A DNA stretch of 64,000 nucleotides, from contig NW_024704760.1 in assembly GCF_018977255.1 (NCBI RefSeq), positions 3,224,001 through 3,288,000 of the forward strand, written 5' to 3'. This stretch comes from Callorhinchus milii. Its lineage: Eukaryota. The position numbers and the translations under genes are program-made. Under the pieces are notes generated by a model. The model was not told where the DNA came from. It saw only the letters and a list, made by a program, of their open reading frames with translations, and did not search any database. Below are positions 9,513-58,300 of this stretch, piece after piece; position 1 is the stretch's first letter, and every line of letters starts with the position of its first letter.

Positions 9513-9582
9513 GTTGTACGGGCGCGCACACACACACACACACACAAGGCATTGAAGCTAGAATCCAGGCTTCGCTTGGAAG

Positions 9583-16665: not shown

Positions 16666-16709
16666 TGAAGGGTTTACAATCACAAAGCTTTGGGATTTAG
16701 GATTTTTGT

Positions 16710-31100: not shown

Positions 31101-34100
31101 TCAATTCACTTTACGGTATATTCTGTGAGGCGCTTTGAGACGTCTCGAAAATGTGATAAGGCGCTAATTCAAAGGCAAAGATTATAATAATTAAGATGAA
31201 AATGGGAAAATTGTAGGTGAACGAAACGTCATTTTTTTTACATTATAATTCAAGGTAATGTCTTGTATATTTTATAGTTCCCTAATGGTGATGATTTTCT
31301 CTTGACTATGAAATGTTGATCTCACAGACACCCCAATGCCACCAGTCAATGTGGTCGCGCCCAGTCAGTGGATAAAGCCTGAGCCGGAACAGAATCTCCA
31401 AGTGGAGCAGCATTTTCCAGGAGAGATATTTAGCTCACCAGAAACCTGGATTAGCTCATTACCCAGTAAGTAAAACACATCCACACTCAACTGAACCCCA
31501 CATTGTCCTCCCAACCCAAGGATCTCGCTCACTTTCCCCCCAATAAAGCCAACGCTAGCCCAAAGTCCTGCCATAAAGGTCCATCTTCATTAGAAAGCTA
31601 CCTGACACTATTGTCTAGGCTGGATGGGGGGACAGGGAGGGCAACCTTTTGGCTATTCAGCCTTTTGAGCCTGTTCCGCCATTTAATTAGACCATGGCTG
31701 ATCTGTACCTCAACTAATCCTTTCAATTCCAATTTCGTGTCTGGCATCCCCCAGGGCTCTGTCCTTGTCTCCTCTTTAATATCTACGTGCTCCCCCTTGG
31801 TGACATCATCCGCAGACATGGGGTCAACTTCCATATGTATGCGGATGATACCCAACTCTATCTTTCTGCCTCCACATTCAACTCCATGACCACTGCTGTC
31901 CTGACACTGTCTGTCGGACATCAAGTCCTGGATGTGGGCAAATTTCCTACAGTTGAATGTGAACAAGACTGAGGCCCTCTTGATTGGCTCACGCCAGCAC
32001 CTCAGCACCTCAGGCTCTGGCATCATCAACCTCCATGGTTGCACACTTCAACTCACCAACCCAGTCAGGAACCCGGGTGACTTGTTCAACCCTCAACTGT
32101 CTTCTTCCCCACATCCAAGCCATGACCCTCTCTGCCTTTCCTCACCTCCGTAACATCGCCAAACTCCGCCACTACCTCACCCCTCAGGCCGCTGAAACTC
32201 GTTCATGCCTTCATCACCTCCAGGCTCGACTATGCAAACGCCCTGCTTGTCGGCCTTCCCAACTCCTCCCTCCACAGGCTGCAGATAATTGAGACCATGT
32301 CCTCTCCCGCACCAAACTCTGTGATCCCATCTCCCCCATTCTCGCCCGACTCCATTGGCTCCCTATCCTTCAAAGGATCCAGTTCAAAATCCTGCCCCTC
32401 ACCTACAAAGCCCTCAATGGTCTCTCCCCACCCTATCTCTGTGACCTTCTAACCCCCTATCAACCCACCTACTCCCTCCGCTCAGCCAGCTCCCACCCGC
32501 CCCACAATTGGCGGGAGAGCCTTCAGCCATTCTGCCCCCAACCTCTGGAACTCCATCCCCAAATCACTCCATCTCGCCCCCTCTTTAGCCTCCTTCAAGT
32601 CCCGCCTCCAAACCCTCTTCGGCCATGCCATCAGTCACTCCCCTTCCCCTCCCACACTTGACAGCAAATGCCCGAATGAAGAGCCTAACAAGTTGTTTGG
32701 GCATTACAGGTGCTATGTTCAATGCAAAGATCATTTCATTGTGTTCTTCTACCTCTCGGTTAAATATTAATGGTTAACCTATTGTCAGGGGGATCTTTCA
32801 TGTTCTATTCATGGAGGGATGTGCTCATGAGCTGCAGTTCACGTGTTTGATGTGCAGTTTTAATTGGGAATCTTCTTGGCCTTACCGCAGAGATGCTCTG
32901 GCATGTTTCTCGTTCCAAGTTCCCGAGGCTATAGAACACGGCATATCATTAAAATAACCGTCACATAACCAGAAACCTGTTGGGTTTCAGTCAGTGATAC
33001 AGATACTGTGACGTTAAATCTGTCAGCCAAAGAGATGACAGAAATTTGGCCGAGTTCCATTTTGTGAGTTTTTTTTCCTTCTGATAGACATTTGAGACAC
33101 AAGCCTTTTCCAACCCAAGCACAAACCACAAAGCGCGTCACTTTATTGCACTGGCTGGAGTTAGTGTAGTTCAGTGGAGATGCTAATTGTGCCCTTTTGT
33201 TCATGAGACCCAAAATGAAAATGGACTGGAACTGACAATAAAATGGTAGACTAAGTTAAAAGAGGGTGGCTTGGTTCAGTTGGTAGTGCGCTCGCCTCTG
33301 AGTCAGAAGGTTGTGGGTTCAAGCTCCGTGCGGTGCCTTTGAGCTTTTAGTCTAGTCCTACACTCCAGTATGATGATGGCGATGTACTGCATTGTCGGAG
33401 GTGCCATCATTCGGATGAGACATTAAACCGAGGTCCCTTCTACTTGTTCAGGTGGATGTTAAAGATCCAACAGCACTATTCAAAAAGAGAAGGGAGTTTC
33501 TCCCGGTGTTCTGGCCAACAATCCTCAGATAAAGGTGGTCATTCACTCTAGAGCTGGAGCTGGTTGTCGGTAAAAATCCAGGGATGCTCTTTGAGACGTT
33601 TTGACAACACGATAAGGATCGTCAGATGCAAGGGTTATTATATCACTGAAGAAGTGGAACATTAAATGAAAACACTTACAAAAGAAATAGCTATTCTCAC
33701 TCCACTGGTTATGTAAATGGCTTGAGGGGAATATAATAATAATCCTTGCATTTGATACAGCACCTTATCACGTCTTCAAGACGACTCAAAGCGCTTCACA
33801 GAGTATGCTGTAAAGGGAGTGACTTGTGTATTTTGTGGGCGAAACGCAGCAGCCAATTGCTCACAGCAGCGAGCCACAAATACTAGAAATGATTGAGAAT
33901 GTGGAAAGGAAGGGGCTTTGAATAGTGCAAAGCAGTTGAATTGATGCGGGTAAATAATATTTTCTTTTGTCAGACGTCAGTTAATCTAACAGCGTTTCTT
34001 CTTTCCTGCGCAGTGACGGACCTGGAAATCACGTTCCTCTATCGGGGCAAAGAGGCTGGACAGACGGTGACGGTCAGTAACCCTCAAGGGTGCCGTCTGT

Positions 34101-37100
34101 TTTACGGGGATTTGGGCCCGATGCCAAATCAGGAGGAGCTGTTCGGGCCGGTCAGTCTGGAGCAGGTGAAGTTTCCGGTGACGGAGCACATCTCCAACGA
34201 GAAGCAACGCCTCTTCACAAACCGCCTGCTGGACGTGATGGACCGAGGACTGATCTTGGAGGTCAGCGGGCACGCCATCTATGCCATCCGCCTGTGCCAG
34301 TGTAAGGTGTACTGGTCGGGGCCCTGTGCGGGCGGCACTGCCACCCCGCACCTCATTGAGAGACAGAAGAAAGTCAAGCTGTTCTGTCTGGAAGCATTCT
34401 TAAGTGGTGAGTTCCCCCCACACTTGGCTGAGCCGAAGCGATTTTAAGCCAAAAGAGTTTGTTTACCGGAGTTCTCAGAAAATAATTTGGTTCTTCCAAG
34501 TGTGTCGAGGTCTGAAATTCCATGCAGTCCCAGCAGGCAAGATCATTTGGTCTTGACGTTTCAACGTTGAAGTTCTGTAGTGTATTGGTTAGAGCAGTCG
34601 TCTCGCAAGCGAGAGGACCTGGGTGTGATTCCCGGTCAGGGCGAAACCTTAGGCAAGTTTCCTTACTGCGCAAGCCTCTGTTTACCTAGCAGTGAGTAGG
34701 AATCCGGTCGTTAAGTCTTTTGGCAGAAATAATCCCTTCAAAACTACAAAACTTGGTTGCTGTATCCACGGCTGTTTGCGGGACGCTGCTGTGCGCAATT
34801 GGCTGCTGCGTTTTGTCCACAAAATGTACAGTTAATTCACTTTCCAGTGTATTTTGTGAAGCTCTTTGAGACGTCTCAATGACACGATAAGGCACTATAT
34901 CAAATGCAAGGATGATTATCATTTATTGTTATTATTGTGGAAATTTGTTCAATTCAGTCTTAGGTTGTTCCTGAGTTGGGTTGGTGAAGTTGTTGGATTG
35001 ACAGCTGTCAGTAACCCTTGTTGCAACTGTGTACATGTGGAGGAGGGTCAAGGATAAGAGATAAGATGGTTAAGATAGCCCTTAATGGTTGAATGGTTGG
35101 TCATTCACTTTGTGACTGTCTGGGGGGGGGGGGATGTTGATGTGCACAAATTGGTTCCGCAGTCACCTACGTAATAATAATATTAATAATCCTTGCATTT
35201 GATAATACAGTCATTATATTTCACAGTGAAGAGCTTTGAGACATTCTCCTGATGTGAAAGGCATTGCATCAAATGCAAGGATTATTATTAGTTCGGCGTC
35301 ACTCATGAAGAATGACCCCCAACCTCACCACAAGTGGGCACTGCTGCCACCAAAGGAGTCGTGTTTCAGCCTAAATCGGTTGAGATTTGGATGGAGGAAA
35401 AAAATTGGAAGTAAAACCATAATTGGAAAGAAATTCTTCCTATGTCCCGGTTGTCCTTTAACCCCAATGCCTGATTAGGAGGAGACCGTTTTCATTTGAG
35501 ATGCCTCTGTTGATGTGGCCGTTGTTTCTTCCTCCCTCAACAACAACAACTTGAGTCTATATAACGCCCCTCACGCAGGATAGGGTCCCTGAGCTAGGTA
35601 GGTGAGTTTGGCTCCAAACTAACCTCCCCTCCAAGGGCAAAGGCATTAACTTCTTTCGAGACACTCATATTGACCTGTAGGTAAGTGCCCGTGCTCTCTG
35701 AACATTGCTGACCTCATTAGCCATAATTATCCTTGCAATTTACATAGCACCTTAATATGCCTCCGAGACGTCACAAAGGGCTTCACAGAATATACTGTAA
35801 AGTGAATTGACTGTATATTTTGTGGTATCATTGACGTAGGAAGTCTGGAATCTTCCATTTGTATCTTCGCAATCCGTTAACCTCAAGCTTTAAGGTTTGA
35901 ATAGTAAACCTGTGGAACAGACTCCCGGGAGAGACCGTTGAGGCAGGAAATGTTGATTCTTTCAAAATCAAATTAGTTTTCTTTTAGAAAATAACATTAT
36001 GCGATATAGGACATAGTTTGGACACTATGTGCCTGCGACCGCCAGGAAGGTGGAAGGCGAACTAGATGGACCTTTTGTTTTTTGTCATCTAACATTTCTT
36101 ATGTAATTGCAGAACTGATTGATCATCAAAAAGGACAAGCCATTAAATCACCGCAGTTTGAGATTTCCCTGTGTTTTGGGGAAGAGTGGCCGGACGGTAA
36201 ACCTAAAGAGAGAAAGCTAATCATGGTACAGGTAAGGGTCCTTGAAGTTTGACACGAGTTGATTGAGATTATACTTTTACCGGGAAGTCCTGGGATGATG
36301 AGCTAAAAAAAGGTCCATATATATTGAGTTAATTACTTACCTTTTCCTATTGAGTTCCTAGTTGTTGATAACTGACTTTTACAAATATTGCAGAAAGAAA
36401 TGCTGAGCTAATCCCCGTAATGCTATGTGAGTTAAGTGTGTGAGTGCGTACTTAGAACGAACAGCGTTGTAGCTGCAAGTTACGTCTGCCCTAACTAAGA
36501 GGAATATGTACAAGGTAATTTTTAAAAACTTCCTAAAGTCATGCAAAGGTGTCCACGCTTCAGTATGGCACAAGCTGTAACGTGTAAATAGATCAAAAAC
36601 TTGTCAATCACTTCACGGCTGTTTGTGGGACACTGCTGTGCGCAAAATTGGCTGGCCCGCTCACCTAAGAAGGTCAGTCACTCCACAATAAAATCCTGTG
36701 AAGTCTTTTGAGGTGTATCGATAAGACGCCTTATCATATGCTCTTATCCTACGAATCGTCGATCTCTTACTAAGGAAAACTGGATTTGCTGGACGTGTGG
36801 CTGGAATAGACTACTTGTAACTCTACTTGTGGTTTGAAATGAGGTTCAGCTGGGGTGATGCATAGCGAGCGGCAATCGCTTGAGCTCACTTAGCCAATAA
36901 ATCCAGCATTTTCACTTGGAATGTTTCCCGTTTTCTCTCAGATCGTGCCCATCGTAGCGCGGATGATCTACGAGATGTTTAGCGGCGAATTTTCACGTTC
37001 GTTTGACAGCGGCAGCATCAGGCTACAGATCTCCACTCCGGACGTCAAGGATAATATTGTGACTCACCTGAAGCAACTCTTCCATCTCCTACAAACAAAC

Positions 37101-37169
37101 CAAGGGCACCAACCGTGGCAAATTCCAGCTCAGAATATTCACATGGCACAGGCACTTCAAGCTCAGTAA
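28184..37169 (+). CDS. IRF6: Interferon regulatory factor 6, 8 coding exons, 458 aa
   Basis: Exons 28184-28360, 28828-29032, 29774-29856, 30729-30762, 31328-31465, 34014-34406, 36113-36231, 36942-37169; 1377 nt in frame. Trp-cluster DNA-binding domain ([13 protein letters not shown]...[11 protein letters not shown]...[16 protein letters not shown]), IAD/SMIR domain (TDLEI...[11 protein letters not shown]...RLCQCKVYW), C-terminal [15 protein letters not shown]. Confidence 0.97.
30010..30680 (+). mobile_element. CR1-type LINE 3' fragment in an IRF6 intron
   Basis: ORF 30053-30289 ([36 protein letters not shown]...) is typical CR1 ORF2 C-terminus. It is frameshifted and ends in ggccgaatggccgactcctgctcctaattcttatgttct. 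Confidence 0.9.
31737..32720 (+). mobile_element. L2-type LINE fragment (RT C-terminal part), frameshifted
   Basis: [33 protein letters not shown] (YADD catalytic motif) and [11 protein letters not shown] lie in different frames. Confidence 0.9.
33265..33640 (+). mobile_element. tRNA-headed DeuSINE (SacSINE1-like)
   Basis: A-box/B-box head (TGGTTCAGTTGGTAG...GGGTTCAAGCTCC) followed by GGATGAGACATTAAACCGAGGTCCC...CAGGTGGATGTTAAAGATCC core. Confidence 0.75.
35890..36104 (+). mobile_element. CR1-like LINE 3' end abutting IRF6 exon 8
   Basis: ctgtggaacagactccc...gaactagatggaccttttg...ttcttatgt. Related copies at 5860-5965, 50500-50556(-) and 60845-60903. Confidence 0.7.
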
Positions 37170-40100: not shown

Positions 40101-40421
40101 CACCGAAAGATATATTTAGCGCAAACTTCAATCTGCATCCATTGCTTACTCAGTAAAACGGGCAAGTGTTTGTTGATGGGTAATGTCTACAACATTGAAG
40201 AGGGTTTACCAGAATCAGTATTTGATCAATTTTATCTCAAAGTGACATTTAAAGAACTTGTTTATTTATTAACTAAAAACATTCCCAATTACCAAACCAC
40301 ATATATTGTGAGTAACGGGAGGTGGGGTGGTGGTGGGGGGGGAAGCTTGAGAGAAATCATTTATTCGTATTACCTGATACACTCTTCATTGGAGGACATT
40401 TGCAAGTCTTCGGATTCCAAC

Positions 40422-43400
40422 ATGAGTTTTATCTTCAAATATGGAACTACCTTATTCCTCCTCCTTGGGTACTTGCAAGCAAATTCCTGTAAGTAATCAT
40501 CCTTGGCAGAGGTGAAGCTTTTTACTGGTTTCAGGGAAAAGGCGAAGGGAATGGGGTGATGATAGATGATTTTGGCTTGAGAGGTAGCAATATGTATCAA
40601 CAATAACAACTTGCATTTACATAGCCCCTGTTCGCAGGATAGCCTTCCGAAGGGCTGAATGGCCTCCTTCTTGTGCTGTGAATGCTAACGAGACACAACA
40701 ACGAAATTACATTTGTGCAGTGCCTTTCACGTCGGGAGGACATCGCAAGGCGTTGGACAGTCTGTGTTTAGGACCCGAGCTGAGGTTCAGGATCGAGGAA
40801 GGTGGAGGGCAGGAGGGGGAAGGAGGGTGATCACCTCTTTGAGACATCTCGAAGTGATAAGGCACTATATCAAATTCAAGGATTATTATTATTTTATTAT
40901 TATTACTGTGCGCAAATTGGCTGCTGTGTTTGTCTGCAAAAACACCCAGTCACACACTACCCTTGCTTTATTCGGATCTTCAAGGCACTATATCAAATGG
41001 AAGAATTTCAGTGCCTTGGGACGTCCTCCTGACGTGAAAGGCACTATATAAATGCAATTTGTAGTTATTATGAGGTGCTATCTCCAATGCTAGTATTATT
41101 AGTTGTAAAAGTAAGGAACCCGGTTGTTAGTCAATTGGNNNNNNNNNNNNNNNNNNNNNNNNNNNNNNNNNNNNNNNNNNNNNNNNNNNNNNNNNNNNNN
41201 NNNNNNNNNNNNNNNNNNNNNNNNNNNNNNNNNNNNNNNNNNNNNNNNNNNNNNNNNNNNNNNNNNNNNNNNNNNNNNNNNNNNNNNNNNNNNNNNNNNN
41301 NNNGTGTTTGTGGGACACTGCTGTGCGCAATTGGCTGCCGCCTTTCTCCCACAAAATATACAGTCAATTTACTTCACACTATATTCTGTGAAGCACTTTG
41401 ACACATCTAGAAGATATGATAAGGTACTATATCAAATGCAAAGATTATTAATACTATAGATATATTGTATGTAAATTTGAGATAACTTAAGTTATCTTGA
41501 GATAACTCTCTCTCTGTGATGTACATTATTCTTACATCGTTTTTTAGTGTTTTTGCAGAAACCATCTGCCAACATGTTTCTCAATCGGATTCGGCGAGCC
41601 AGTGGTTTTGGGGAAGAGCTGACGAGAAGCGACAACCTGGAAAGAGAGTGCATAGAAGAATTGTGTGACAAAGAGGAAGCCTATGAAATATTTGAAAATG
41701 GGGAAAAAACTGTAAGAATTGTATTTAAAAGCTTTAGCCAATCTTTTGAGCCATGAAAGAACTTATACTATATATATTGATTTTCTAAAAACATTCAGAA
41801 TGCAATTTACCGTGTGGGTTTGTAATAAAAGTAAATTTAGAAAAATCATATTAATGGGAGGTCGTCTCAAAGCACTTCATAGGATATACTGTAAGGTGCA
41901 GTGACTGTTTTATAGATGAATGTGGTTATTGGGAAAACATTTATATCTTTTTATATATTTTTTAATATTTGTTTTCTGGGGTTAATAATCTCTTCAAAAT
42001 AATAATGATAATAATGTTTTCACTCAATCCACGACTGTGTGGGACGCTGCTGTACTTGATTGGCTGCTGCGTTTCGCCCACAAAATATACAGTCAATCCA
42101 CTTTACAGTATATTCTGTGAATCGCTCTGAGGGCGTCTCAAAGACATGATAAGGCGCTGTATCATATTCAAGGATTATTATTATTATTATATACAGCTTT
42201 ATGCTGTGCAGATAAATAGCAAGGATCTTTATTTCAATGATTTCTCCCATGAATGAGCACTAACTCTGGGAAGGCAGGAAGCAGTGACCAATTTCATGAA
42301 GTGTCACATGATTACAAGAATGGTTTGGATGAAAAAGGCCCTTCGGCCCATTCAATCTCACCCTTCCAGAGTACGCACACTACTGCCTTTGCATCACAGC
42401 ATCAAGCTGTTTTTAAACGAGTCCTCAACCACCCTTCCTGGCAACCTGACCTAAGAGTTGGTTACCTTATGGGTTAGGAAATACATCCTGGTGTCTGTCT
42501 TGAAATTGCCCTTTGCAGTTCTAACCCAAAGTCTTCTTACTACTGCCTTGCCTTGGTGTCTCTCAAGTTATTGTTCTGGATTTATTTCTTCAATCACATT
42601 TAACATTTTATACTCCTCAATAAGGATTAAAAACACCAAATACGAATCTTTTTTTTTAAACTTCTCAAGATTAGTAAATGCTAATAAGGGGACTTGATTA
42701 TATTTGACATGTTTGAACCTACATTTCTGGCTAGGATCTCCTGATATTAAAGATCCTTAAACTTTCTTTTGTTTCCTTCCAGAACGAGTTCTGGAAGACC
42801 TATGAAGGTATGTTTATTTTCATGTTCTAGTATGTTACGTAAAATTTGAAATCGGATATTATCGATATAAAAATTAGCCATGTTGCGCCTGCAATAATCC
42901 TATTCCGAAATAATTGTAAAACACGGTATCAGGTAAGAACTGGTTAAGCGAAAGTCCCAAGTAACAGATTTGCAAGGATCGAAAATAGAGATTTTGATGG
43001 GAAACCCAATCATTAACCTTCCAGTGAAAGAACTAAACTTTTTCCTCTGGGGTTTATCCTGTTATGAATAAGCCTGTTCAATTAGACAACAACAACTTGC
43101 ATTTATAGAGCGCCCTTCACCTGGAATCGTGTCTCTGAGCATGGATGTGAAAGATCCCAGAACAGTACTCGACAAATAAAAGGAGTTTCTCCCATTGTCT
43201 TGGCCATCGGCACCTCCCCACACCCATAAAATTGGTCATTTACTTAACAGATATATGTGGGATATTGCTGTATGCAAATTGGCTGCCATATTCCCTACAA
43301 AAATGTAGCTTATGCACTTTACAGTGATACATTTCGAGACCCTCCTGACATGAAAGACACTCTTATTAAATGCAAGGATTATTTTTATTACTAAGCTCAC

Positions 43401-44226
43401 GAACAGGGGTGCAAGTGTTATGGTGAAATTATGTGCGAAGATTACAGGGAACTTACGGCACGGAAACAGGACACTCGGTCGTGCTGGTGTTTATATTCCA
43501 CAGGGATCAAGTGAAGTCTTTTATGGCATGAATAATATTTTGAAGATATGAATTATATCTTCATGTTAAATGATTATCTGCAGCAAAGTCCTTCCTCAGT
43601 ACCTGCATTAATATGAATTAATATGAATGTCTTTATACAGGGAGGCGATTTCACCCACCTGCCCCCTTCAGTCTCCCACCTCCAAGTAAGTTTTCATTAT
43701 GATTTACTAATCAATTGCATTGCATTTCGGATACAACAAATTATTAATTTTTTAAAAAATATATTTATAATTGTGATAATTTAGCTACCAAATTAAGACT
43801 GAAGTAAAAGATTTTCCACAATTCTGCACAATATAACATTTTAAGACAAAGTGGTCTTACCTGCTATAACGAGCTGGAGTTTCCAGCTGCATTAATAGAT
43901 AATAATAATAATAATAACCATCGCGTTTGATATAGTGCCTTATCACGTCTCTAAGACGTCTCAAAGATAGTTCTTTTCTCTTCCTTTTTTTTGCCACAGC
44001 ATTGGCCCCGATCGACAAACGAACACAGGAAAGGTCGATTCAGGATATGATTAGTATGGGAAGGCAAATCATTGAAAAGAAAAAGGAAATGATTCAACTT
44101 AAACAGAGGATAATTGAACTGAAAGAGAGCTCCACTGAGCTGAAAAACAACTTGCTCCATGAAATACGAGAAAATATCTTGCAAAATACTTGCTGCCTCT
44201 CAACTATTTACCAGCTGCTGAATTAA
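40422..44226 (+). CDS. Secreted vitamin K-dependent Gla-domain / coiled-coil protein, 5 exons, 175 aa (no recognised ortholog)
   Basis: Exons 40422-40488, 41548-41711, 42783-42807, 43641-43685, 44000-44226; all GT-AG, phases 1,0,1,1, 528 nt open. [22 protein letters not shown] / [17 protein letters not shown] / [46 protein letters not shown] / [15 protein letters not shown] / [81 protein letters not shown] at 44507-44512. Confidence 0.8.
41548..41711 (+). CDS. Propeptide + Gla domain exon of the novel gene
   Basis: F-16, A-10 and L-6 carboxylase-recognition residues, RIRR furin site, [14 protein letters not shown] motif; acceptor ttttag and donor gtaaga. Confidence 0.92.
42783..42807 (+). 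CDS. 25-nt aromatic-stack exon (NEFWKTYE) of the novel Gla gene
   Basis: Long pyrimidine tract + cag acceptor, gtatgt donor; same size and phases (0 to 1) as the FWxxY exon of factor VII/IX/X-family genes. Confidence 0.88.
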
Positions 44227-45569
44227 AATGGAAATCATTCATGGATGTTCTGATTTTTCAACATGGTAGCAAATGCTCTTTTAAATTTTTTTTCCCCCCA
44301 GATCCAATCAATTTCTCTTCCCAGTAGTCCTTTCGCCTCCTGAGTCAGAAGGTTATGGGTTCGAGGCTCTTAAATTGTGACTTTGAGCTCACAGTCTAAA
44401 CTGTCAAACCAAAGTCCTGTCTACTTGTTCAGGCAGACGTTAAAAGATCCCATGGCATGACTCGAAAACTGGTAGAAAACCTTTTGCGCGAAAGAAAAGT
44501 TGCAAAAATAAATCACACGTTTTCATTCACACATATTTGTAATTCTTTCAAAGTGCTGTGGGAAATGCCACAGAAGTTATCAATATTAACGTATCAAGAT
44601 TCTGTGAAACAAGCTCTCACAAAATCTCTCTTTCTCTGCCAACTCCTTCAACGGGTCACCAAGATTATCCACTGAATACTCAGTATACCGACGGTGTAAT
44701 GAATAGAGTTCCAGTTATGAGCCAGTGGCTCACTTGTTCGAATCCTCGCTTTTTGCTGAGTTTGCTGGGCTCAGTTGGGGCTTCAATAGATCAGATTGGC
44801 TCATTGCATTGCTGTGCGCTACTTGGCTGCCGCGCTTGCCTACAAAATACAGTCACTGCATCGTAAGTATATCCTGTGAAGCACTTTGAGACATTCTCCC
44901 AAGCAGCTATGGATTATTAGTACAATACAGTAATAGTAGTCATCAGTGAAGTGTCCTCCACCAGAGGGTGCTCCCTGTAAGGCAAGTGAGCACGAGTCTA
45001 ATAAGATCAATTCTTGCATTTGGTGTAGCATTTTACATTAATCCTTGGTTTCCATATCGTGCATATCGTGAAGTCAAACACTTGTGTAGTTGTGACTGTG
45101 TTTGCAGGCTAGGTGTGCACACAGCAGAGATCCCAAAGTTAAATAATAATCCTTGCAATTTGATATAGCGCCTTATCATGTCGTCGTGACGTCTCAAAGC
45201 GCTTCACAGAATATACCGTAAAGTGAATTGACTGTATATTTTGTGAGCAACACAGCAGCCAATTGAGCATAGATATGTTGTGTATTATTTCATATATATT
45301 ATAAAAACATATGAAATATATATTCATACTTCAAAGGCCTTGCTTTTGATCTGCCCACCCACCTACCTGCGCAATTCACTGCCGTGTTTCGCTCACAAAG
45401 AACACAATCAATTCACTTTGCAGTATATCCTGTGGAGTGTATTCTAACGCCTCAACGTGATTATGATAAGGCGCTATATCAAATGCTAGGATTATTATTG
45501 TCCGGCTGCCTGTCTGTCTGCCTGGAGAGAGGGAGAGGAAAATAATACTCTTGTGTTTCCCATTGCCCT

Positions 45570-46770
45570 GGGAGAGGGAGGGTGGTGGGGAGAGGAGTGG
45601 GAAGTGGAGATTGGGGAGGGTGGGGGAGTGCGTGGGGAGGGAAGGGTGAGGGTGGGGAGTGGGTGAGAAGGGGAGGGTGGGGGAGTGGGTGTGGAGGGTG
45701 AGGGTGTGGAGGGTGAGGGGGGGAGTGGGTGTGGAGGGTGAGGGGGGGAGTGGGTGTGGAGGGTGAGTGGGTGTGGAGGGTGAGGGGGGGAGTGGGTGTG
45801 GAGGGTGAGTGGGTGTGGAGAGTGAGGGAGTGGGTGTGGAGGGTGAGGGTGGGGGAGTGGGTGTGGAGGGTGAGGAGGGGTGTGGAGGGTGAGGGAGTGG
45901 GTGTGGAGGGTGAGGGGGGGAGTGGGTGTGGAGGGTGAGGGGGGAGTGGGTGTGGAGGGTGAGGGGGGGAGTGGGTGTGGAGGGTGAGGGGGGGAGTGGG
46001 TGTGGAGGGTGAGGAGGGGTGTGGAGGGTGAGGGAGTGGGTGTGGAGGGTGAGGGGGGGGGAGTGGGTGTGGAGGGTGAGGAGGGGTGTGGAGGGAGTGG
46101 GTGTGGAGGGTGAGGGGGGGAGTGGGTGTGGAGGGTGGGGGAGTGGGTGTGGAGGGTGAGGAGGGGTGTGGAGGGTGAGGGAGTGGGTGTGGAGGGTGAG
46201 GGGGGGAGTGGGTGTGGAGGGTGAGGGGGGGAGTGGGTGTGGAGGGTGAGGGGGGGGAGTGGGAGGAAGGGGAGTGGGTGTGGAGGGTGAGGGAGTGGGT
46301 GTGGAGGGTGAGGGGGGGAGTGGGTGGAAGGGGGAGTGGGTGTGGAGGGTGAGGGGGGAGTGGGTGTGGAGGGTGAGGGGGGAGTGGGTGTGGAGGGTGA
46401 GGGGGGGAGTGGGAGGAAGGGGGAGTGGGTGTGGAGGGTGAGGGAGTGGGTGTGGAGGGTGAGGGGGGGAGTGGGTGGAAGGGGGAGTGGGTGTGGAGGG
46501 TGAGGGGGGAGTGGGTGGAAGGGGGAGTGGGTGTGGAGGGTGAGGGGGGGAGTGGGTGTGGAGGGTGAGGGGGGGAGTGGGTGTGGAGGGTGAGGGGGGG
46601 AGTGGGTGTGGAGGGTGAGGGGGGGGAGTGGGTGTGGAGGGTGAGGGGGGGAGTGGGTGTGGAGGGTGAGGGAGTGGGTGTGGAGGGTGAGGGGGGGAGT
46701 GGGTGTGGAGGGTGAGGGGGGAGTGGGTGTGGAGGGTGAGGGTGGGAGGGGGGGAGGGGTGTGGGGAGAC
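45570..46770 (+). repeat. G-rich minisatellite, unit about GAGTGGGTGTGGAGGGTGAGGGGG(G)
   Basis: Tandem units of about 20-27 nt over about 1.2 kb, almost no C on the + strand. It generates the spurious Pro/His/Thr ORFs on the - strand. Confidence 0.95.
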
Positions 46771-47176: not shown

Positions 47177-47314
47177 ATAATGATGGTGATGATGATGGTG
47201 GTGGTGGTGATGATGACAGTGATGACGAGGATGATGACGGTGATGTTGATGATGGCGATGGTGATGATGAACATGATGGTGATCGTCATCGTCATCATCA
47301 TCACCATCACCATC
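47177..47314. repeat. Degenerate (GAT/GGT)n repeat switching to (CAT/CAC)n
   Basis: atgatggtgatgatg...gatcgtcatcgtcatcatcatcaccatcacc. Confidence 0.85.
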
Positions 47315-47393
47315 CTGGCCTTTGATACCGCGCCTCGTCGCCTTTTGCTGTTAACCTATTGTTTCTGTTCCAGTCTGACGAGTTGCGGCCGCA

Positions 47394-48206
47394 ATGGAGG
47401 CCTCGCGGAAGGAGCAATTGATGTCCGCCGCACGGAAAACGCTGAGGATAAAGAACAGGAAGGGTCTGTCCGCACCGTGCTGTCTGAGCCTCGGTGCCGA
47501 GATCCTAGCAGTAGATGCCGGGTTAAAGCCAGCCTTCCTGTTTGATTACAGTCGAGCAGGAGCCGAGCAGCTCCAGGATTATATTCAGGAGATACAAAAG
47601 ACTGGGCTGATCTACCAGCGTTTACACATCCTCAGCCTCGGGGATAATGTTCTGATACTAAACTTGAGCAAAACTATCAGACACTTAGAGAAGTCGCTCC
47701 AGGGAAACTGGGTTCCACTCATTGACGTATCTGCCTGTAGAGGGGTGCCAACACTGGCTGATACAAGTGTCATCGAACAAGTGAAAACTCAGATTGAGTT
47801 TATTTTAGCCCATTTGAAATCTCTGGCAGTCGACAGAGGGACGTGCGATTCAAAGTCCGTCACTACCAGCGAAATGTTCTCATCGGAGTGGAACCTGTGT
47901 ACGGTGTTTGGATTTCTCCTTGGCTTCCCAGCTTCATACTGGTTTGACTTCGCTGAGAGTTTTGAGAACTGTCTGAGTATGATTGAACTGCGAGTGTTCT
48001 CTGTTTCTGCCGTTTGTTCTAGAATCAGCAAAGATCTCAAACACCGAATGTATTCCTTCAGCGTCCCAGAAACTATCTACTTGGATCTGCAGCACTGCGT
48101 GGAGACTTGGAAGAAAGATCTACAGTTCAACTTTAACAAGCAATCGGTTTTCTCAGAGCTCAGTATTTCCACAGAGATAGTCTCTCTACCCGCAGTTGCA
48201 CTATAA
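47394..48206 (+). CDS. C1orf74: UPF0739 protein C1orf74 homolog, single coding exon, 270 aa
   Basis: Intact ORF with ILAVDAGLKPAFLFDY, WNLCTVFGFLLGFPASYW, NCLSM, YSFSVPE and C-terminal VSLPAVAL; acceptor ttccag about 20 nt upstream; syntenic position between IRF6 and TRAF3IP3. Confidence 0.9.
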   Translation: MEASRKEQLMSAARKTLRIKNRKGLSAPCCLSLGAEILAVDAGLKPAFLFDYSRAGAEQLQDYIQEIQKTGLIYQRLHILSLGDNVLILNLSKTIRHLEKSLQGNWVPLIDVSACRGVPTLADTSVIEQVKTQIEFILAHLKSLAVDRGTCDSKSVTTSEMFSSEWNLCTVFGFLLGFPASYWFDFAESFENCLSMIELRVFSVSAVCSRISKDLKHRMYSFSVPETIYLDLQHCVETWKKDLQFNFNKQSVFSELSISTEIVSLPAVAL

Positions 48207-49317: not shown

Positions 49318-52300
49318 TTAGGAAAGGAGAATGTCCAGATCTGCATAAATGACAGCAAAAAATACTGCCACCATAGTCAGCATCAGGAGAGATATCCATC
49401 GGCAGCATCGCCTCTAAAAGGAGAATAAATAATAATAATTTATACAAGCCTTTGAAAATCTACCCAGGTCCACAAATGTGATGCCTCTGCTACTTACTGG
49501 AGATTGAGCTCCAGTTGTCTTCGTAAATGATCGTTAACCACTTAATATTACAATGATTTAGGTCCTTGTCTTAGCCTGTGAGAGCATTTTGCTTTAAAGG
49601 CAGCTCAGAATTGTGGAAAATCACTAAATTCAGTCTTAGTTGCGAAGTAGGTTTTTCACAGTTCTCAAAAGACACACTTTCCTGCAGACTAAGACCAGGC
49701 AGAATTTGGGCCCCTTTGCAGTATAATTATTAATAAACCTGGTCATTGTCTACAGTTTCAAAGAAATCACCTGATTCATTAAAAATAATTAAATTATTTG
49801 ATGACGAAATGGATTATTGGCACAGGTAAATCCACGTAAACAAAGATTATTATTGGCTTGTGTTAGGCTTCAGGCCATGAGTTGAAACCTAGGTAAATTG
49901 TTGCATGGAAAATGATAATAATAATCCTTGCATTTGATATAGTGCCTTATCACGTATTATTCATAGAATATACTGCAAAGTGAATTGACTGTATATTTTG
50001 TGGGTGAAAGTTGCGCAAAGTAGTACCCCACAAACAGTCGTGGATTGAGTGACCAAATTATTATTTTTTGAAGGGATTATTACCTCCCGGAATATGATCT
50101 GCTAATCGACTAACAACGGGGTTCCTGCTAGGTAAACAGAGGCGTGTGGAGTAACAAAACTTGCCTAAGGTTTTGCCCTGCCCGGGAATCGAACCCGAGT
50201 CCTCTCGCTTGCGAGGCGAGCGCGCTAACCAATACGCTACAGGACTCCACATTTACTGGATAACCTTTAGGCAGTGGGATTTGCTTGGCCCAGTTCTCAC
50301 CTTTGGTTGTGGCTGTTCTCAGAACCTCACCTTGGCAGATTTCTTCTGAAGCCTCTTTAACTCTTCTCGCGGCTGACGGGGCATCTTTGCACATCGACGG
50401 TGCTCATCCTGCAAGACCCTCAGTTCTAATTGATGTTCGGTACACTGAAGGGTTAACCAAGATAAGAGGCAATTGAATTGCACGTCGAGCGAGAAAACTC
50501 AGGAATATAAGAATTGCTAGACGATAAAAGACCAAAGTCCATCCAGTTCACCTTTCCCCAATCCTAGTAACCACACTCTACATTAATGGATGTTGATAGC
50601 AATGAATTCTGTATAAATTAATCTTATCATCACAGTGGAAAGTTTTGGGAACCTTAGATCCAGAGTTGCCTAGTTTTTCCAAACATACTACACTTACTTT
50701 ATATGTCACATCACAAATTACTCACGTACTGTATCCCAAAATATTATTTTCTGAAAGAAATCTACCTAATCCTAATTTTCATTTGAATGAATTGACACCA
50801 TCTGCTCCCACCGTCTCCACATTTATCACTCTCTCACTGAAATAGTGTTTCCGCAAATTGTTTGTTACGAGGGTCCTTGACCAAGACTATCCCTTGGATA
50901 TAAACTGTTGCAAAGAATTATGAGCAGCATAATTATCCTTGCACTTTGAGTCTTTAATATTGAATTGACACAGGTCATTTCTGTAAGTGTAGTGGCTGTT
51001 GATTTGTAGGCGGGCAGGCAGGCATTTGCGCAAGACAATGTCCTACAAACAGCCATGGAGTACGATCAATTTTATTGGGGGGACACTGGGAGAAACTCCC
51101 TTCACTTTTCGAATAGCGCCATGGAATCTTTAACGTCCGCTGAGCAGCAGACAGGACCTTGGTTTAACGTCTCATCTGAACGACGGCACCTCTGACAATT
51201 TAGCGACCAGCCTGGAATGGCACCAAATCTATTTTCTGCAGGTTTTTGTTTTTCTTTTCGGTTCGTACTTTTGTATTGACGGACAGAATGCGGTTTGGGA
51301 TAATCGGAAAACACGATCCCCGTCAAACATTGCCACGATCGGAATGGCACACGTTTCGTCCCACCTGCTTCTCCTTGCTACGGAGCAAGTCCGTTTGCCT
51401 TTGCAACTGATCCACCAAGTCTCTGATCGCCTGTTGAAGTTCCTGTTGTTGTTGCTGGTGGAGTGGGGAGCTGACCACATCTGGAACAAATCGAAGCCCT
51501 CTCGTTATTGACGTGTTGAAAAAAAAAAAAACTCGAAACCCGCACAGTGCTATTATCCAGCGTGATGGGAAGAGGTCGCAAACTTACCCTGTAGCTCACA
51601 GATTGTAGACTCCATTGCCAGCCTCTGTTCCTCAGTCCTTTGGAGGTGGACTGAAGGGAAACAAAACAACACGAAAATAATAGAGTTATCTCCTTGAGCA
51701 AGTGGTTCGCAAGATCGTTTGGATGAAGAAGGCCCTTCGGTCCATCTGATCCCATGCTGCCGTCCTCCCACATCAAGTAGTTTTATAAATAAGTCCCAGT
51801 GTCCAGGTCGTTAATTAACGTCTGGTTAAGGAAAAACTTCCTGGTGTCTGTCCTAAAATTTCACCCTTTGCCACTCTTTCTCTCTTCCACCTTCCGACTA
51901 CACTAGTGGTGATTGGCACCTGCAACCCACTGGAGCTCCCCGCCATGTGAAACCCCATTGTAATCACCTCCTCACCATCCTAAGCTGCCAGGGGGAGCGC
52001 TTGGCTCTTGGCGTGATGGACAATTGGCAGGTATTCCAGGCCCACGCCTGCTGTCTTCCAGCCAATAACTGTGCCATTGGGGTGGGACATCTGCCCACAA
52101 CGTTCGGTTGCTTGGGGACCTGCTGGCAACACAGGTAGGGGCACCGGAATCGAGCTTCCCCTGAGGGGAAAATGGTGGCCCTGCCTGGCTGCGCTGTTGA
52201 GGGACTTACCTTCAATAGTCATGAGTTGCTCCTGTTTCATGTCATTCTGTTCCTGTAACACGCTAACCTGCTCTTGGAATTCCAGCTTCTCGTTCTCTGC

Positions 52301-55300
52301 GACTTTCAACTTCTCCTGTAAACTTTCCATCGTCAAGACCCGGCCTTCTGCTCCCTACATGGTGGGGGGGTGGAGGAGGGGGGGGGGGAGGGGGAGAGAG
52401 GGAAATGCAGAGAGCAAGATAAAGACCGAGAAAGGTGGAGAAAATGGAAACGTTTTGCAAGAAAGCGGACGGGTGGGACAAAATGACTGTATTTAGATTT
52501 AGTCCATGTTTTTCTTGCGTTAAAGTGTCTTTGCTTGATGACGTCGCAGCGTTAGGTTACCTGCAGTCTGCTCTGAAGGTTGTGCAGTTGATCCACGGTC
52601 TCTGAATGTCTGGCTGTCAGTTCAACATTGTCTGCCATTGCCATATTGTACGACTGTCTCCAGTGAGCACAATCTTGCTCCGCCGCACTGAGCGATCTCT
52701 GCCAACACAAGCACGCACAGTAATTGGGTTCGTCAGCCAGAACTTCAACAACAACCTTGGAGTTATCCCTGTGGGGGTGGTGGGTGGTATTGTGAGAATG
52801 TACACCCTATGTGAAAGGTGTTATATCAATGCAATTTGTTGCTGTTGGTTTCTTACCCCTTCGGTTTGAAGATCCTCACGCACGCTTTCAATGCCCTGGC
52901 CCCTCCCTACCTCTCCGACCTGCTTACTCCCCAACCCACCACCGCGTTGCCTCCGCTCGACTGGCTCTGGCCTCCTGCATGTCCCTCGTGCCCCCTCCGT
53001 TCCACCGTCGGTGGCCATGCTTTCACCAACTCCAACCCTAATTGCTCTTCCTCTATCCCCCCGCTTTGCCCCTTCCTTCCCCTTCTTCACTCGTTCCTGA
53101 AGACTTTCCTCTTCGACCGTGCCTACAGTCACCTCCCCCCAGCTCGGTGTCGTGTTCCGCCACTGTCAAGCGCTCTGGGGAGGGCAGTTGGGGGAGGGTG
53201 GGGGCAAGGCACTACCTTGGCGTGAGGGGCGCTGTATAAATGCAAGTTGTTGTTGTTATCCTTGAGCACAGGAAAGTTCCCCTCTCTCCCTCCTATTGCT
53301 AGCTGAGGCTGGTGGTGTCCTCACCTGGACGCTGGCCAATGATTGTTCAGCGGCGATTCTTTGCTCAATTGCTTTCCGGAGCGACTCCTTGGCAACCAGC
53401 TGGTACTTGAGCTTTTGCTCTTCCATCTCAACCACGCATCTCTTCGCACCGTCTCGGGAGTAATTCTGTTCAACGCACAACAGGAGTTCCTCAATTGCCC
53501 GAGCTTCGAACACAGCCAAAGCCCTACAGCTGTGCAGACTTACGCAAATAACTCTGGAGACGCATTTTCACGCTCAACATATTGAACAACGCTCGAGCCT
53601 GGAAACGCGACACTTTCCCACTTCTGCGGCGTCAAGCGCTCTGAATTCAGGCGCAGCGCGGCTTGATATACACCGAAGCCACCTCTTCCCCCACCACACA
53701 GCAGTCGTCGAGGACACCAGCAGGATACACAGTCGCCGCACTTCGCAGTAGTAGCCTTTGAACCACTTTACGCAACCCCTCAACGCTGCGTCAAGTGCAA
53801 AGGATTGGCAAAAGGACCAGAGGGGGAGACGAGGAGGATTTTTTTTTCTTTTACGCGGCGAGTTGTTACGATCTGGAATGCGCTGCCTGAAAGGGCGGGT
53901 GGAAGCAGATGCAATAACAACTTGCAAAAGGGAATTGGATATTTACTTGAAAAGAAAAAAAAAGTTTGCAGGGCTGTGGGGAAAGAGCGGGGAGTGGGAC
54001 TTGCGGGTAGCTCTTCCAAAGAGCCAGCACAGGCACGATGGGCTTAATGGTCCTCTTCTGTGCTGTAAGATTCTATGATTATTATTGTGACCGTTACCTG
54101 AGTGCAGGCGTACAGCTGCTGCTCCAGGGCTTGGAGTTTACTCTGTGTCACGTCATCATCAAACTGGATCTAAAGTGATCAGAAATATAAAGGCTTAACT
54201 CGTGCTGCAGACCTGCAAACTACTGACTGCGCCTGTGAGGGGTTGCCTGCAGATCTGGGATACAACACTCCCACAGACACAGCCATTTCCATTTCCGTTC
54301 AGTAATTGCAGACAGAAAAGAATATGGAGAAAAGAGCAAGGCAATCTAATTAAAGTATAAAACATATGTGTACATTACAGGGAGACCAAAAAGTCCTGAT
54401 AGCTACCCTAATATCTAAAAAAANTCATAATTTCTTTTAAGACTTATTAGACATTGTTATGGTATCACAACTTTTTGATTCCCCCTCTATATACATATAT
54501 AATATTTAGATAATGTACACAAAAGTACTTTATATTAAAACTCCATGATTGCACAGTCAACAGTCACACGTTTCTTATTAAGAAAACTGCTAAGGAATAC
54601 CGCAAACTAGAATACCCGTCGTGGTCGCTTCAAACCAAGGTGCACAACGAGGGATGTAAGTGAGCGCACGTATGAAAGGTTTGGAATTTGGTCGACTAAA
54701 AATAAATAGCTGCAGACCTGTCTGTGTCGCGTCACCAGTCTCATACCTTCCACGATTTCTCCGATGCCTGTAAGACCGTGGACAGGAGCTGTTGGAGAAA
54801 TCTGAGTTTCTGTTTCAGCTGCAACTCCCGATGCAAGGCTTCCTGTAACAGAGGGAAATGGTCGAGGCTTTACCCAATTACTCCGTGCAGTGGAACAACA
54901 ACAACAACAAGTTGCATTTACACAGCGCCTTTCATGTTAGGAGGACGTCCCAAGGTGCTGGACAGTCAAGGGTTTGCACCAGAGCTGAGGGTTGGAATAA
55001 AAATATAAAGCCCACAAAATATATATTCGCTTTATGTGATAAGGCACTATATCAAATGTAAGGATTATTATTATTATTATTATTATTAGGATGACCGAAA
55101 GCACGGTCAAAGAGGAAGGTCTTGAGATGGGCCTTGAAGAAGGCAAGGGAGGGGGCGAGGCGAAGAGATTCTGGGATGTAATTACGGAGGGTGTGGCCAC
55201 AAAGGCTGAACGTAAGCTTCCATTGGCGAGCACGTCACCTTGGAACGTCAAAGTAAAGGATTCTTATTCTTACCTTTAGGTATTCAGAGAGCTGTTGAAT

Positions 55301-58300
55301 CTCCTGCAAGAGAGAAAATGACAAGTGATTCGCATTTAGGTGCTGGTAAAAAAAAACAATCTTAATGGAGATGTGTTTAAATGTCTGTCCACGTCACTGA
55401 TAACTCCTTCCCCCCCTCCTTGAAGGTGTTAGTAATAGGAGCCAAGGAAGAATTAATGGGAACGTTGTAGGAACGCACACAATCACAACACATCACGTGG
55501 CAGACAGATGTTTCTATTTACCTTGTCTAGAATGGTTACACCACATCTGTAAGGAAAATAGGCACATTTCAGAGACGTGTAAAGTTAACCGAATAAACAT
55601 AGATAGATAATGCCTACAAAATACACAGTCACTCCTTTACGGTAAATTCTGTGAAGCGCTTTGAGATGCGAGAGGTGCTACATCAAATAATAAGAATAAT
55701 GATCCTTGCATTTGATATAGCGCCTTATCGCGTCTTCGAGGCTTCTCAAGGCTCTTCACAGGTTATAGTGTTAAGTGAATTGACTTGTATATAGTGTAAA
55801 GTGAATTGTATATTTTTGTGGGCGAAATGTGGAGGCTAATTGCGCACAGCAGTGCACCATAAATAATATTATTATTATCAAAGACAAGAATCACAGCTCT
55901 GGAGTTGAGAGATCCATACGTACTCTGTCTGCTGGCTTGCTTCCTTGCTCGTTGGCCGATTAATTTCAACTCCCACATCTGAAGGTACTTCTGTCGCTGC
56001 TCCCAAAACAAAGCTCCAGTTACACACTGATCTCTACCTTTGCCGTGACTCAGTGAGCTCCCCGTATACAGATCCACGCTCCTGCCCCGCGCATCTAACA
56101 GTGAACACGCTTTACTAAACTTATCAACTGTCCCTCCATCTGTTTTCAGATGTTCTCAGTAAAATTCATATAATCCATCTCTAACTGAACGGAACCGCTC
56201 TCACCTTTACCGCTGTCAGATGTCTTCAGGTTGACTGTGTTCTTCTGCGGTGGTGCATCGGAAGGGAAGGCCCATGTCACCTTTTGTCCCCAGTGAAACG
56301 ATGTGTGGCTGAACAGGCTCCCGTTCTGCAACGACGTCTGTCAACAGGGAAATAGAGCCCACGTCAGAAAATCGGAAAACATTAGCAGTCAATTACCTCA
56401 TCAGATAAGACCTGGATTGAGCAACTTTGTTTCCCGGGCAGGGCAAAACCTTAGGCAAGTTTCCTGACTCCACATGCCTCTGTTTACCTAGCGGTCAGTA
56501 GGAACCCGGTCATTAGTCGATTGGCCGATCGCTTTTACGGGGGGTAATAACCCCTTCAAAAATAATAATTTGGTGACTCGATCCACGACTGTTTGTGGGA
56601 CGCTGCTGTACGTTTCGACCACAAAATACACAGTCAATCCACTTTACAGTATATTGTGTGAAGCGCTTTGAGGCGTCTCATTGGCGATGCAATAAGGTGC
56701 TGTGTCAAATGCAAGGATTATTATTATTTAGAAGGAGGCGAGGATTGAACAGTGAAGGTATCAGAATGTTGATGAACGTTCTCCAGTTTGGGCTTGGATA
56801 CCTTTGGGGTTTATGGAGTCATTGTATAAATCTTCTGTCATAAGCAAGAAGAGGAACATTTCGATGGTCTCTGGTTTCTTGCCTTCAACTGTCCTCAACT
56901 GTGAACGTTTCAAATTTCCACAAAAAAATATTTTCAATGATATCAGTAAGGTACTCTCAGGGCAGAACTTGGCTTATCACAGATGCTTTCTCGAACATGT
57001 ACCAACACTACTTGCTAATGGGAAGATTGTTGTTCGATGCAGCTTTGTAGTGAATTAGTCATTTTTTGTTTTGCTCTCAGGAAGTGACTTCTCGGTTCAT
57101 AATGTTGTTTGATAAGAATCTGTAGCCAGGCAATAACTGAACCGTGAATAGTCCAATTAAATTACTCTGCTTCCTGTGTAACTTGCATTTTTTCCCCTGA
57201 TCTTAAGGGGTTACATGTATTGTGATTCTTTCCAATGATCAGAGGGCAGGCTTGCTATATGATGTGTTACAATGTGCTGTGTTATATAATAACTATATTT
57301 CTATTATATTATTATATTATTACATTATATTATCTTTTATTGTGGCGCCTATAAATTCTCAAAGCCAACTGTGGTGGCTGTAATATTTTGTGGGTACAAA
57401 CAGTAGCCAATTTACGCACAGCAATGTCCCGCAAACAGCCATGAAGCCAATTTTACCTGGAGGATTTGTTTGCCAGGACATTGGGAGAAACTCCCTTCTC
57501 TTTTTGAATAGTACCATGGGATTTTTGACGTGCACCTGACCAGGCAGACGGGACCTTGGTTCAGCATCTCATTCAAAGGTCTAACAAAGGTCTACCTCCC
57601 CAGGTGCTTTGATTTAGTGCCAATCTAGTCTTTGAGCTCAAAGACGTCGGACTTGAACCCGCAACCCTGACGCAAGAGTGCTACCGACTGAGCCAGAAGC
57701 CATTACTCTTGAAGCTGTGATACTTCCTGTCTCTCTCTGTCTCTTCTTTCTCTCTCGAACACACTTTCCCTGACAACAATGGCAAACGTAGGCTGAGATG
57801 CATTCTGAGAATCCAGTCCTTATTGGTCTGAAGATCAACAAACTGCTGAAATGTAGAACTCGACTGAAGGCCACAAAGATAGATGTTGTGGTGAACATCA
57901 ACGGCACTTTGCTGCAGCAGGGAGTTTGTGGTTAAGGCAGCAGTACTGGCGAACGACACAGAGAGACGTCCGGTGTAGACGTCTAACCCATACCATGCCT
58001 GACAAAGAGCAATAAAACACACACTTATCTCTACCCCCCCCCCAGCGCTAATACTGATCTCACGATTTGAGATGAACACAAACTTCATACCAAACAAAGG
58101 CAGCAGGTGGAACAGGTTAACTCAATGTTGTAATGGGAAGAAAATAATAATAGATAAAAATAGCCCTAGGATTTGATACGGCGCCTTATCACGTCTTCGA
58201 GACGTCTCAAAGCGCTTCACAGGATATAGTGTAAAGTGGAGTGACTGTGTATTTTGTGGGCGCAACGCGGCAGCCAATTGCGCACAGCGGCGTCCCCAAA

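Follow-up and report, generated by a model that had tools for sequence, protein, structure and literature searches.

A Gla-domain protein with a coiled-coil tail, apparently undescribed, encoded in the chimaera Callorhinchus milii and shared with sharks and rays

A five-exon gene in the genome of the chimaera Callorhinchus milii encodes a Gla domain that is followed by a linker and a coiled coil. It lies in a stretch of 64,000 nucleotides (nt), referred to here as the window (assembly GCF_018977255.1, contig NW_024704760.1, positions 3,224,001 to 3,288,000, forward strand). Judged by its sequence, it is a real, conserved gene of cartilaginous fish for a secreted vitamin K-dependent protein of small size. 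Vitamin K-dependent Gla proteins make up a small family that has been catalogued well, and we know of no clotting-type Gla domain that does not lead into a protease, receptor-binding or membrane module. The combination of Gla domain and coil is a new architecture within this known superfamily, apparently undescribed and kept since the split between chimaeras and sharks, more than 400 million years ago.

The five exons have AG acceptors and GT donors at all junctions and intron phases 1, 0, 1 and 1. They splice in frame into an open frame of 175 amino acids that ends at position 44226 (Table 1). The product is letter for letter XP_007897752.1, a RefSeq prediction named 'uncharacterized protein LOC103182504' (Callorhinchus milii), which confirms the exon structure proposed in the first-pass annotation of the window. 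The acceptor of the last exon has pyrimidines at 15 of 17 positions, against 6–8 in four other candidate acceptors examined, and the N stretch in intron 1 lies outside all exons. The product equals the prediction, and shark and ray proteins carry a C-terminal helix homologous to the last exon; the gene is therefore not a chance frame. In the 992-Mb genome the last exon is single-copy, with one match at an expectation value (E) of 7e-40 and three further matches no better than E 3. Gla exons number 15, this one included; the other 14 belong to prothrombin, protein S, GAS6, F7/F9/F10/PROC/PROZ-type and PRRG genes, labels that are our own reading of reference proteins (13 by downstream exons, PRRG4 by a motif). 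Two factor IX-like genes lie 10 kb apart (L007 and L009, G000:C15), and a protein S-type and a GAS6-type gene stand in tandem, 25 kb apart (L006 and L013, G000:C4).

The putative signal peptide was called from its peak hydropathy (1.13 over 19 residues) and its conservation in the family. As first annotated, it is followed by a propeptide with F-16, A-10, L-6 and a basic cleavage site (R-4, R-2, R-1), and by a Gla region with 13 Glu in the first 46 residues of the 136-residue mature protein and a loop between Cys18 and Cys23. The Pfam Gla profile (PF00594) matches at E 1.2e-15, with 57.8 bits against a cut-off of 27. Both Cys and the Glu at mature positions 7, 17, 21, 26, 27 and 30 are invariant in 14 of 14 family members, and Glu 6 and Glu 20 are kept in at least 90%. 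We take the invariant Glu to be the inner calcium-row residues that fold the membrane-inserting loop. In the propeptide of the family, A-10 and L-6 are invariant, and F-16 and the Arg at -4, -2 and -1 occur in at least 90%.

The gene layout is of the clotting type, with a phase 1/0 propeptide–Gla exon followed by a 25-nt exon for the aromatic stack. This exon size is common to nine secreted Gla genes of the chimaera genome; in PRRG1 and PRRG4 it is 49 nt. F7, F9, F10, PROC, PROZ, sirtilin and prothrombin share the signal peptide, carboxylase propeptide, Gla domain, 25-nt exon and phase-1 junction with the chimaera gene, and factor X is the best PDB match of its product, in the Gla region only (E 8.8e-17). 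While the clotting factors continue into EGF or kringle and protease domains, the chimaera protein has the coil instead, together with a remodelled omega loop. No EGF, kringle or trypsin-like module was found at the locus or in the product by tblastn, genome matches and Pfam. The 175-residue protein contains no transmembrane helix (peak hydropathy 0.43, compared to 2.84 in PRRG) and no PPxY tail. It is a protein without catalytic, EGF or membrane-anchor module. Apart from the canonical loop, all sequence features tested place it in the clotting-type Gla family, and it falls outside every named subfamily. The sirtilins are a precedent for an overlooked vitamin K-dependent family, but they are proteases (accessible text of PMC6850207).

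The linker of exon 4 corresponds in sharks and rays to a long, variable region that is often rich in N-glycosylation sites; in P0013 it is repeated three-fold. The coiled coil first annotated in the last exon is borne out by structure prediction and by alignment. AlphaFold2, run with 11 sequences, models a single helix over residues 107–174, with a predicted local distance difference test score of 94–98 over residues 111–160; the Gla part is poorly modelled, and the predicted template modelling score is 0.35. In an alignment of 15 proteins the helix comprises six gap-free heptads (42 columns, period 3.5). The hydrophobic fraction is 0.92 and 0.83 at two adjacent heptad positions, 0.47 and 0.31 at two others and 0.08–0.10 at the other three. 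The hydrophobic face is broader than in a two-stranded zipper and has a polar stripe along its centre, which points to at least three helices or to a partner. In many members Cys residues lie beside the helix, at one end or both, at positions that are not fixed. The terminal Cys pair of the chimaera protein is not a family-wide feature: of the 14 other aligned coil sequences, 5 have a Cys at the end of their own helix (a read-through model not counted).

Fold searches did not assign the helix. Foldseek with the monomer model returned only Gla fragments (E 0.4 or worse), and in a wider search several unrelated long helices tied, with a top Z of 6.7 and none reaching 8. The ESM Atlas gave Gla clusters at 0.76–0.80 for the chimaera protein, as leads only. 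In fibrinogen, COMP/thrombospondin, C4b-binding protein and the collectins a short helix bundles chains so that weak heads bind by avidity, which provides a model of how the tail could work. The chimaera coil has no significant sequence or fold match to such coil-oligomerised plasma and matrix proteins: the helices of COMP, thrombospondin and C4b-binding protein are not among the listed matches, and a sub-threshold fibrinogen lead concerns the short forms of the family.

The gene is a member of a family and not an orphan. Its scope rests on the top of the search lists: a search of 1.84 billion representative sequences gave 773 matches, the best 150 of which were listed, and a profile search gave 27 matches among 8,000 scored candidates. 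From 13 sequences of sharks and rays, with the chimaera left out, we built a coil profile; it matches 16 of 169 fetched proteins at E < 1e-7 (next best E 0.23). Thirteen of these match by construction; three were held out, including the chimaera protein (E 3e-8). Among 6,582 six-frame pieces of the window and the fetched loci, the profile finds only the chimaera last exon (E 4e-7; next 0.38). Among the matches listed, the 14 of the 16 coil carriers with a species name are all cartilaginous fish from 12 genera. Besides the chimaera and basking shark proteins, the searches brought in family sequences of whale, sevengill and horn sharks, a catshark, two skates, a stingray, an electric ray, a sawfish and a manta. 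The basking shark protein has the same order of parts, with 20 of 39 identities to the chimaera protein over signal peptide and propeptide, and the two C-terminal helices align gap-free with a score of 66, reached by 0 of 2,000 shuffles. The family records carry automatic names such as 'uncharacterized', 'factor X-like', 'factor IX-like', 'GAS6-like', 'protein Z-like' or venom-like. In one short-coil protein, P0042 (Heterodontus), the dibasic propeptide cleavage site and the first Glu are lost; it may keep its propeptide or be degenerating.

Three forms can be distinguished. Form A, which includes the chimaera protein, consists of Gla domain, long variable linker and coil. In form B, the Gla domain is followed by two or more EGF domains, the last of which is shortened. 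In form C, of about 135 amino acids, a B-type Gla domain is joined directly to the coil. The new Gla architecture of the first-pass annotation thus stands as a further architecture, not as a lone gene: since the family also has Gla-EGF-EGF paralogues, the coil looks like a swapped module.

If the product follows the known Gla pathway, the signal peptide would export it, the propeptide would dock it on gamma-glutamyl carboxylase, furin would cleave after the dibasic site, and Ca2+ would fold the Gla domain. By analogy, these steps taken together are very probable. The six-heptad helix would bundle several chains, probably more than two because its hydrophobic face is wide; self-assembly through the coil is likely, given the heptad pattern. 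A cluster of Gla heads on flexible linkers would then bind avidly to anionic membranes of activated blood cells, dying cells or vesicles. Being without an effector domain, the protein would act by occupying or bridging surfaces, as a shield that damps the assembly of clotting complexes, or as a tag or cross-linker. Tentatively, and with somewhat less than even confidence in the whole, we describe it as a putative binder of anionic membranes that is secreted, gamma-carboxylated and made multivalent by oligomerisation through its coil.

Phosphatidylserine is a ligand of Gla domains, and its binding by GAS6 fragments is amplified when they oligomerise (accessible text of bioRxiv 10.1101/2025.01.24.634764); Gla residues 4–6 insert into the membrane (accessible text of PMC8432591). 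By analogy, protein S and GAS6 offer the best functional model, in which Gla-mediated membrane binding is combined with clustering. Like the chimaera protein they are secreted, non-enzymatic Gla proteins with a short phase 1-1 exon after the aromatic stack, which measures 63 nt in the GAS6-type gene, 57 nt in prothrombin and 45 nt in the Gla-coil gene. Unlike it, they possess four EGF and two laminin-G domains and form a separate tree group, and the linker exon of the chimaera gene has no Cys loop. Both genes are present elsewhere in the chimaera genome.

The first-pass annotation had proposed a soluble binder of Ca2+ and phosphatidylserine. A non-enzymatic, non-membrane protein is upheld, but phosphatidylserine binding cannot be taken for granted, since the omega loop does not follow the clotting-factor pattern, and the protein probably prefers other lipids than factor X or prothrombin do. 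Several observations weigh against the multivalent membrane binder. The chimaera loop keeps Phe4, Leu8 and Arg10 and differs from the canonical loop at Gly5 and Ser2: Gly stands directly before the first Glu pair, a place taken by a hydrophobic residue in 102 of 103 other Gla sequences, and mature position 2 is Ser. In all 11 long-coil shark and ray proteins, Gly lies two residues before the Glu pair and no Lys or Arg follows it. The pair is preceded by Gly-Leu in 11 of 12 form A proteins, and a basic residue after it is present in 1 of 12 (the chimaera only), compared with 82 of 103 other Gla sequences. The aromatic-stack Trp is lost in several sharks. In the coil, polar residues predominate at the central heptad position (hydrophobic fraction 0.31, Lys/Arg 0.29), a pattern that fits a partner helix as well as self-assembly. 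Finally, all family records are predictions, and two of them are without the coil: a predicted basking shark isoform (P0002) and a chimaera database model (P0005, UniRef A0A4W3GME2), which has 71 amino acids and ends after the Gla exon by reading into intron 2.

Such records would also be expected if the coil were an annotation artefact, with the Gla exons in fact spliced to an EGF or protease module and the coil exon a separate or a minor ending. The exon junctions are predicted, and the models P0155 and P0041, which run the coil into the next Gla gene, illustrate that predictions here can err. Nevertheless, tblastn with 12 relatives and a motif scan revealed no EGF exon in the window. Among 68 genome matches to a ray form B protein, the best is the chimaera Gla exon itself, and no other lies on the contig of the window (C19). 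The same order of Gla domain, linker and coil recurs in 12 genera. We regard an artefact as highly improbable.

Another alternative is that the Gla cluster binds calcium phosphate, as in osteocalcin, MGP and UCMA/Gla-rich protein, and regulates the calcification of tesserae, teeth or denticles. The loss of basic omega-loop residues and, in several sharks, of the aromatic stack, the retention of 9–13 Glu in the family Gla domains and the restriction of the carriers found so far to a lineage with its own mineralised skeleton would agree with such a role, and an oligomer would bind crystals avidly. However, the gene has the structure of a clotting-factor gene, including the 25-nt exon, the inner calcium-row Glu are invariant, and in 11 of 12 long-coil proteins two hydrophobic residues come after the Glu pair, both to be expected of a loop that folds and inserts into membranes. 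UCMA, MGP and osteocalcin are likewise small, secreted and gamma-carboxylated, without an enzyme domain, whereas the chimaera protein has a clotting-type Gla domain and gene structure. UCMA may have a coiled-coil segment, which our literature search did not confirm; its Pfam profile matches none of 14 family members at E 0.05. The Mgp and Bgp genes of the chimaera lie at a different locus, between Erp27 and Ddx47 (accessible text of PMC8006282). The gene is absent from the accessible text and supplements of a catshark cartilage transcriptome (PMC13188829), where an uncharacterised name would escape notice. On balance, a mineral binder appears unlikely.

The coil could also serve a heteromeric adaptor, whose helix slots into the coiled coil of another protein and tethers this partner to membranes. 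Besides the polar central heptad position, the fibrinogen lead bears on this possibility. The Gla domain aside, two of 14 members, both short-coil, have Pfam Fib_alpha (PF08702) as their best match (E 0.0098 and 0.029), at 15–16.5 bits and thus far under the cut-off of 29.9, with the terminal Cys on profile position 132–133. With a profile of three short-form sequences, a chimaera fibrinogen beta-type distal-coil exon ranks third of 2,613 pieces, a score reached by 3 of 5,000 heptad-preserving shuffles, and two more exons of the fibrinogen cluster rank fourth and seventh. This ranking is not independent, because the fibrinogen loci were fetched on account of the Pfam match. The fibrinogen exon has 228 nt and phase 1-1; the Gla-coil last exon has 227 nt to the stop and phase 1. 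For the chimaera protein and an 11-member long-coil profile the resemblance is nil: the fibrinogen exon ranks 16th–17th, with 844 and 3,011 of 5,000 shuffles as high. A long coiled coil with no relation to it scores higher. Searches of the PDB with short-form sequences gave coronin coils and no fibrinogen, the hidden Markov model of the family matched the fibrinogen loci at E 2 or worse, and PF08702 does not match the chimaera protein. The fibrinogen link is a real but thin lead, confined to the short forms, and an adaptor of this kind is rather doubtful. The fibrinogen cluster itself (G000:C1:24842000-24911000, L035-L044) contains four chain genes, two of them alpha-like with near-identical exons.

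A bolder scenario, which we rate as a long shot, would have a pre-vertebrate Gla-EGF gene kept in cartilaginous fish and duplicated beside IRF6, its EGF pair swapped for a copy of the fibrinogen distal coiled-coil exon and its product anchoring or limiting clots. If true, the two halves of clotting would be united in one natural protein, with a Gla head for activated membranes and a helix from fibrinogen, able to pair with its own kind or with fibrin(ogen), and bony vertebrates would be without it.

The origin of the family was approached with a tree of signal peptide, propeptide and Gla domain, a short alignment of 84 columns. The chimaera protein groups with the long-coil shark and ray proteins (support 97/85). 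The long-coil form A and the EGF and short-coil forms B and C join with support 95/85 in 14 rows without the horn shark protein; with it, the 15-row family has support 42/31, and the horn shark remains unplaced. On the Gla domain alone the chimaera protein is unplaced (one skate row left out). The group test on this Gla-only tree compares the family with two marine proteins only and is not evidence of one origin.

By this tree the Gla-EGF-EGF paralogue of sharks and rays, known by automatic names only, falls in the sister group of the long-coil proteins; it has an EGF pair with a shortened last EGF where the chimaera protein has the coil. In P0155 (Heptranchias) and P0041 (Scyliorhinus) the database models run the form A coil straight into the next Gla gene; these fused models are probably annotation read-throughs, with real two-Gla proteins a possibility. 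Forms A and B in the stingray, and C and B in the manta, lie on contigs of equal length. Because of the read-throughs and the equally long contigs, a tandem array is the simple reading. No Gla-EGF-EGF paralogue was found in the chimaera assembly by genome matches to the ray protein or by a scan of the window. Most likely, a phase-1 exon swap would have put the coil in place of the EGF pair after an older Gla-EGF gene had been duplicated in tandem.

The form B EGF domains match two marine-eukaryote Gla-EGF proteins, P0061 and P0068, with scores of 221 and 199, compared to 113 or less for the fetched clotting factors and 121 for an invertebrate-type EGF-rich protein. Among the proteins fetched, the motif of the shortened EGF occurs only in four form B proteins and in these two. 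This match suggests an old, protease-free Gla-EGF gene as ancestor. We guess that P0061 and P0068 come from tunicates; tunicate Gla proteins, reportedly described by Kulman et al. in 2006, may be relatives of these and of form B. ESM Atlas matches of the ray paralogue, to Gla-EGF clusters, hold no information on origin. Several protease-free Gla-EGF-EGF proteins of sharks and rays (P0006, P0010, P0154 and the C-terminal half of P0155) are auto-named factor X-like or venom-like, and in P0006 the Gla-EGF unit is duplicated. With P0061 and P0068, such proteins possibly form an undescribed old chordate family of their own.

The Gla region cannot settle the parent gene. None of four candidate sister groups is rejected by approximately unbiased (AU) tests (p 0.44–0.68). 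An origin from protein S, suggested by one motif, is neither supported by the tree, where a grouping with PROS1/GAS6 is absent, nor rejected by its AU test (p 0.68). As to a possible PRRG2/IRF3 paralogon, as in human, none of six IRF matches in the chimaera lies on the PRRG2 contig.

The AU result leaves room for a degenerate offshoot of PRRG2/4, protein S/GAS6 or prothrombin at a paralogous locus, with a captured tail that is non-functional or merely stabilising. PRRG2 is among the nearest named non-family matches and shares the acidic, non-basic loop (3 of 3), and contig C17, on which prothrombin and PRRG4 lie together with an IRF gene, would be compatible with an old duplicated block. PRRG1–4 are also small and non-enzymatic, with a similarly acidic loop in PRRG2/4 and a 164-nt Gla exon in PRRG4; they differ in their transmembrane helix, PPxY tail and 49-nt exon (PRRG1/PRRG4). 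Yet the candidate parent genes are all present separately in the chimaera genome, PRRG2/4 (100/98) and PROS1/GAS6 (99/98) form their own groups, and a helix that stays gap-free in chimaera, sharks and rays is not expected of a passive tail. We consider a degenerate offshoot very unlikely.

The gene is placed between an IRF gene and C1orf74, as first annotated: an IRF-family domain and DUF4504/C1orf74 were matched on its two sides. The choice of IRF6 rather than IRF5 is our assumption, made with the help of a second, 73% identical IRF locus elsewhere in the genome. FOXA-like and HNF1-like motifs, picked post hoc, each occur once in the 400 nt upstream, where 0.18 and 0.09 are expected from window-wide rates; they give a weak hint of liver or gut expression.

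Table 1 Features of the Gla-coil gene and its neighbours (positions in the window)
Feature	Position	Strand	Description
Overlapping FOXA-like and HNF1-like sites	40259..40273	+	about 150 nt 5' of the ATG; motif matches
Exon 1, coding part	40422..40488	+	67 nt; signal peptide, amino acids 1-22
Exon 2	41548..41711	+	164 nt; gamma-carboxylase propeptide to 41597, Gla domain from 41598, Cys18-Cys23 loop
Exon 3	42783..42807	+	25 nt, phase 0 to 1; aromatic stack
Exon 4	43641..43685	+	45 nt, phase 1-1; Pro-rich linker
Exon 5	44000..44226	+	227 nt to stop, phase 1; predicted coiled-coil helix, six-heptad core about 44047-44172, Cys pair 44191-44196
Candidate polyadenylation signal	44507..44512	+	3' of the stop codon
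Upstream neighbour, IRF5/6-type gene, last coding exons	33926..37169	+	IRF-family domain match 33926-34444
Downstream neighbour, C1orf74, single coding exon	47394..48206	+	DUF4504 match 47379-48203

Between the Gla-coil gene and C1orf74 lie a 1.1-kb G-rich tandem array with periods of 25–151 (45615-46766) and an ATG trinucleotide run (47180-47283). Two genes for guanylate cyclase activators (9562-19975) stand tail to tail just upstream of the IRF gene, one of GCAP2 type at E 2e-22, the other assigned by sequence only; in human these genes are on a different chromosome. Coiled-coil exons on the minus strand (51000-59200) seem to us to resemble TRAF3IP3, which would complete an IRF6-C1orf74-TRAF3IP3 block.

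The first-pass annotation called the gene apparently undescribed, and this holds with one amendment, the uncharacterised RefSeq prediction. No full-length match to a characterised family was found in PDB, Pfam or two protein collections. The full-text literature, whose coverage excludes most subscription papers, yielded no description of the gene or family and no paper citing their accession or locus numbers. Neither is mentioned in the accessible text of PMC9669250, PMC9643190, PMC6850207, PMC4221892, PMC10707392, PMC8006282, bioRxiv 10.1101/2025.01.24.634764, PMC13188829, PMC8432591 or PMC13631366.

Misleading database names ('factor X-like', 'GAS6-like' or venom-like) have kept the family out of sight, and its recognition changes the count of clotting genes in cartilaginous fish. 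The mature protein of 136 residues is predicted to offer a natural scaffold that binds membranes multivalently and whose omega loop is altered by nature. The Gla-EGF-EGF sister gene may be a survivor of the protease-free ancestor out of which the clotting factors were assembled.

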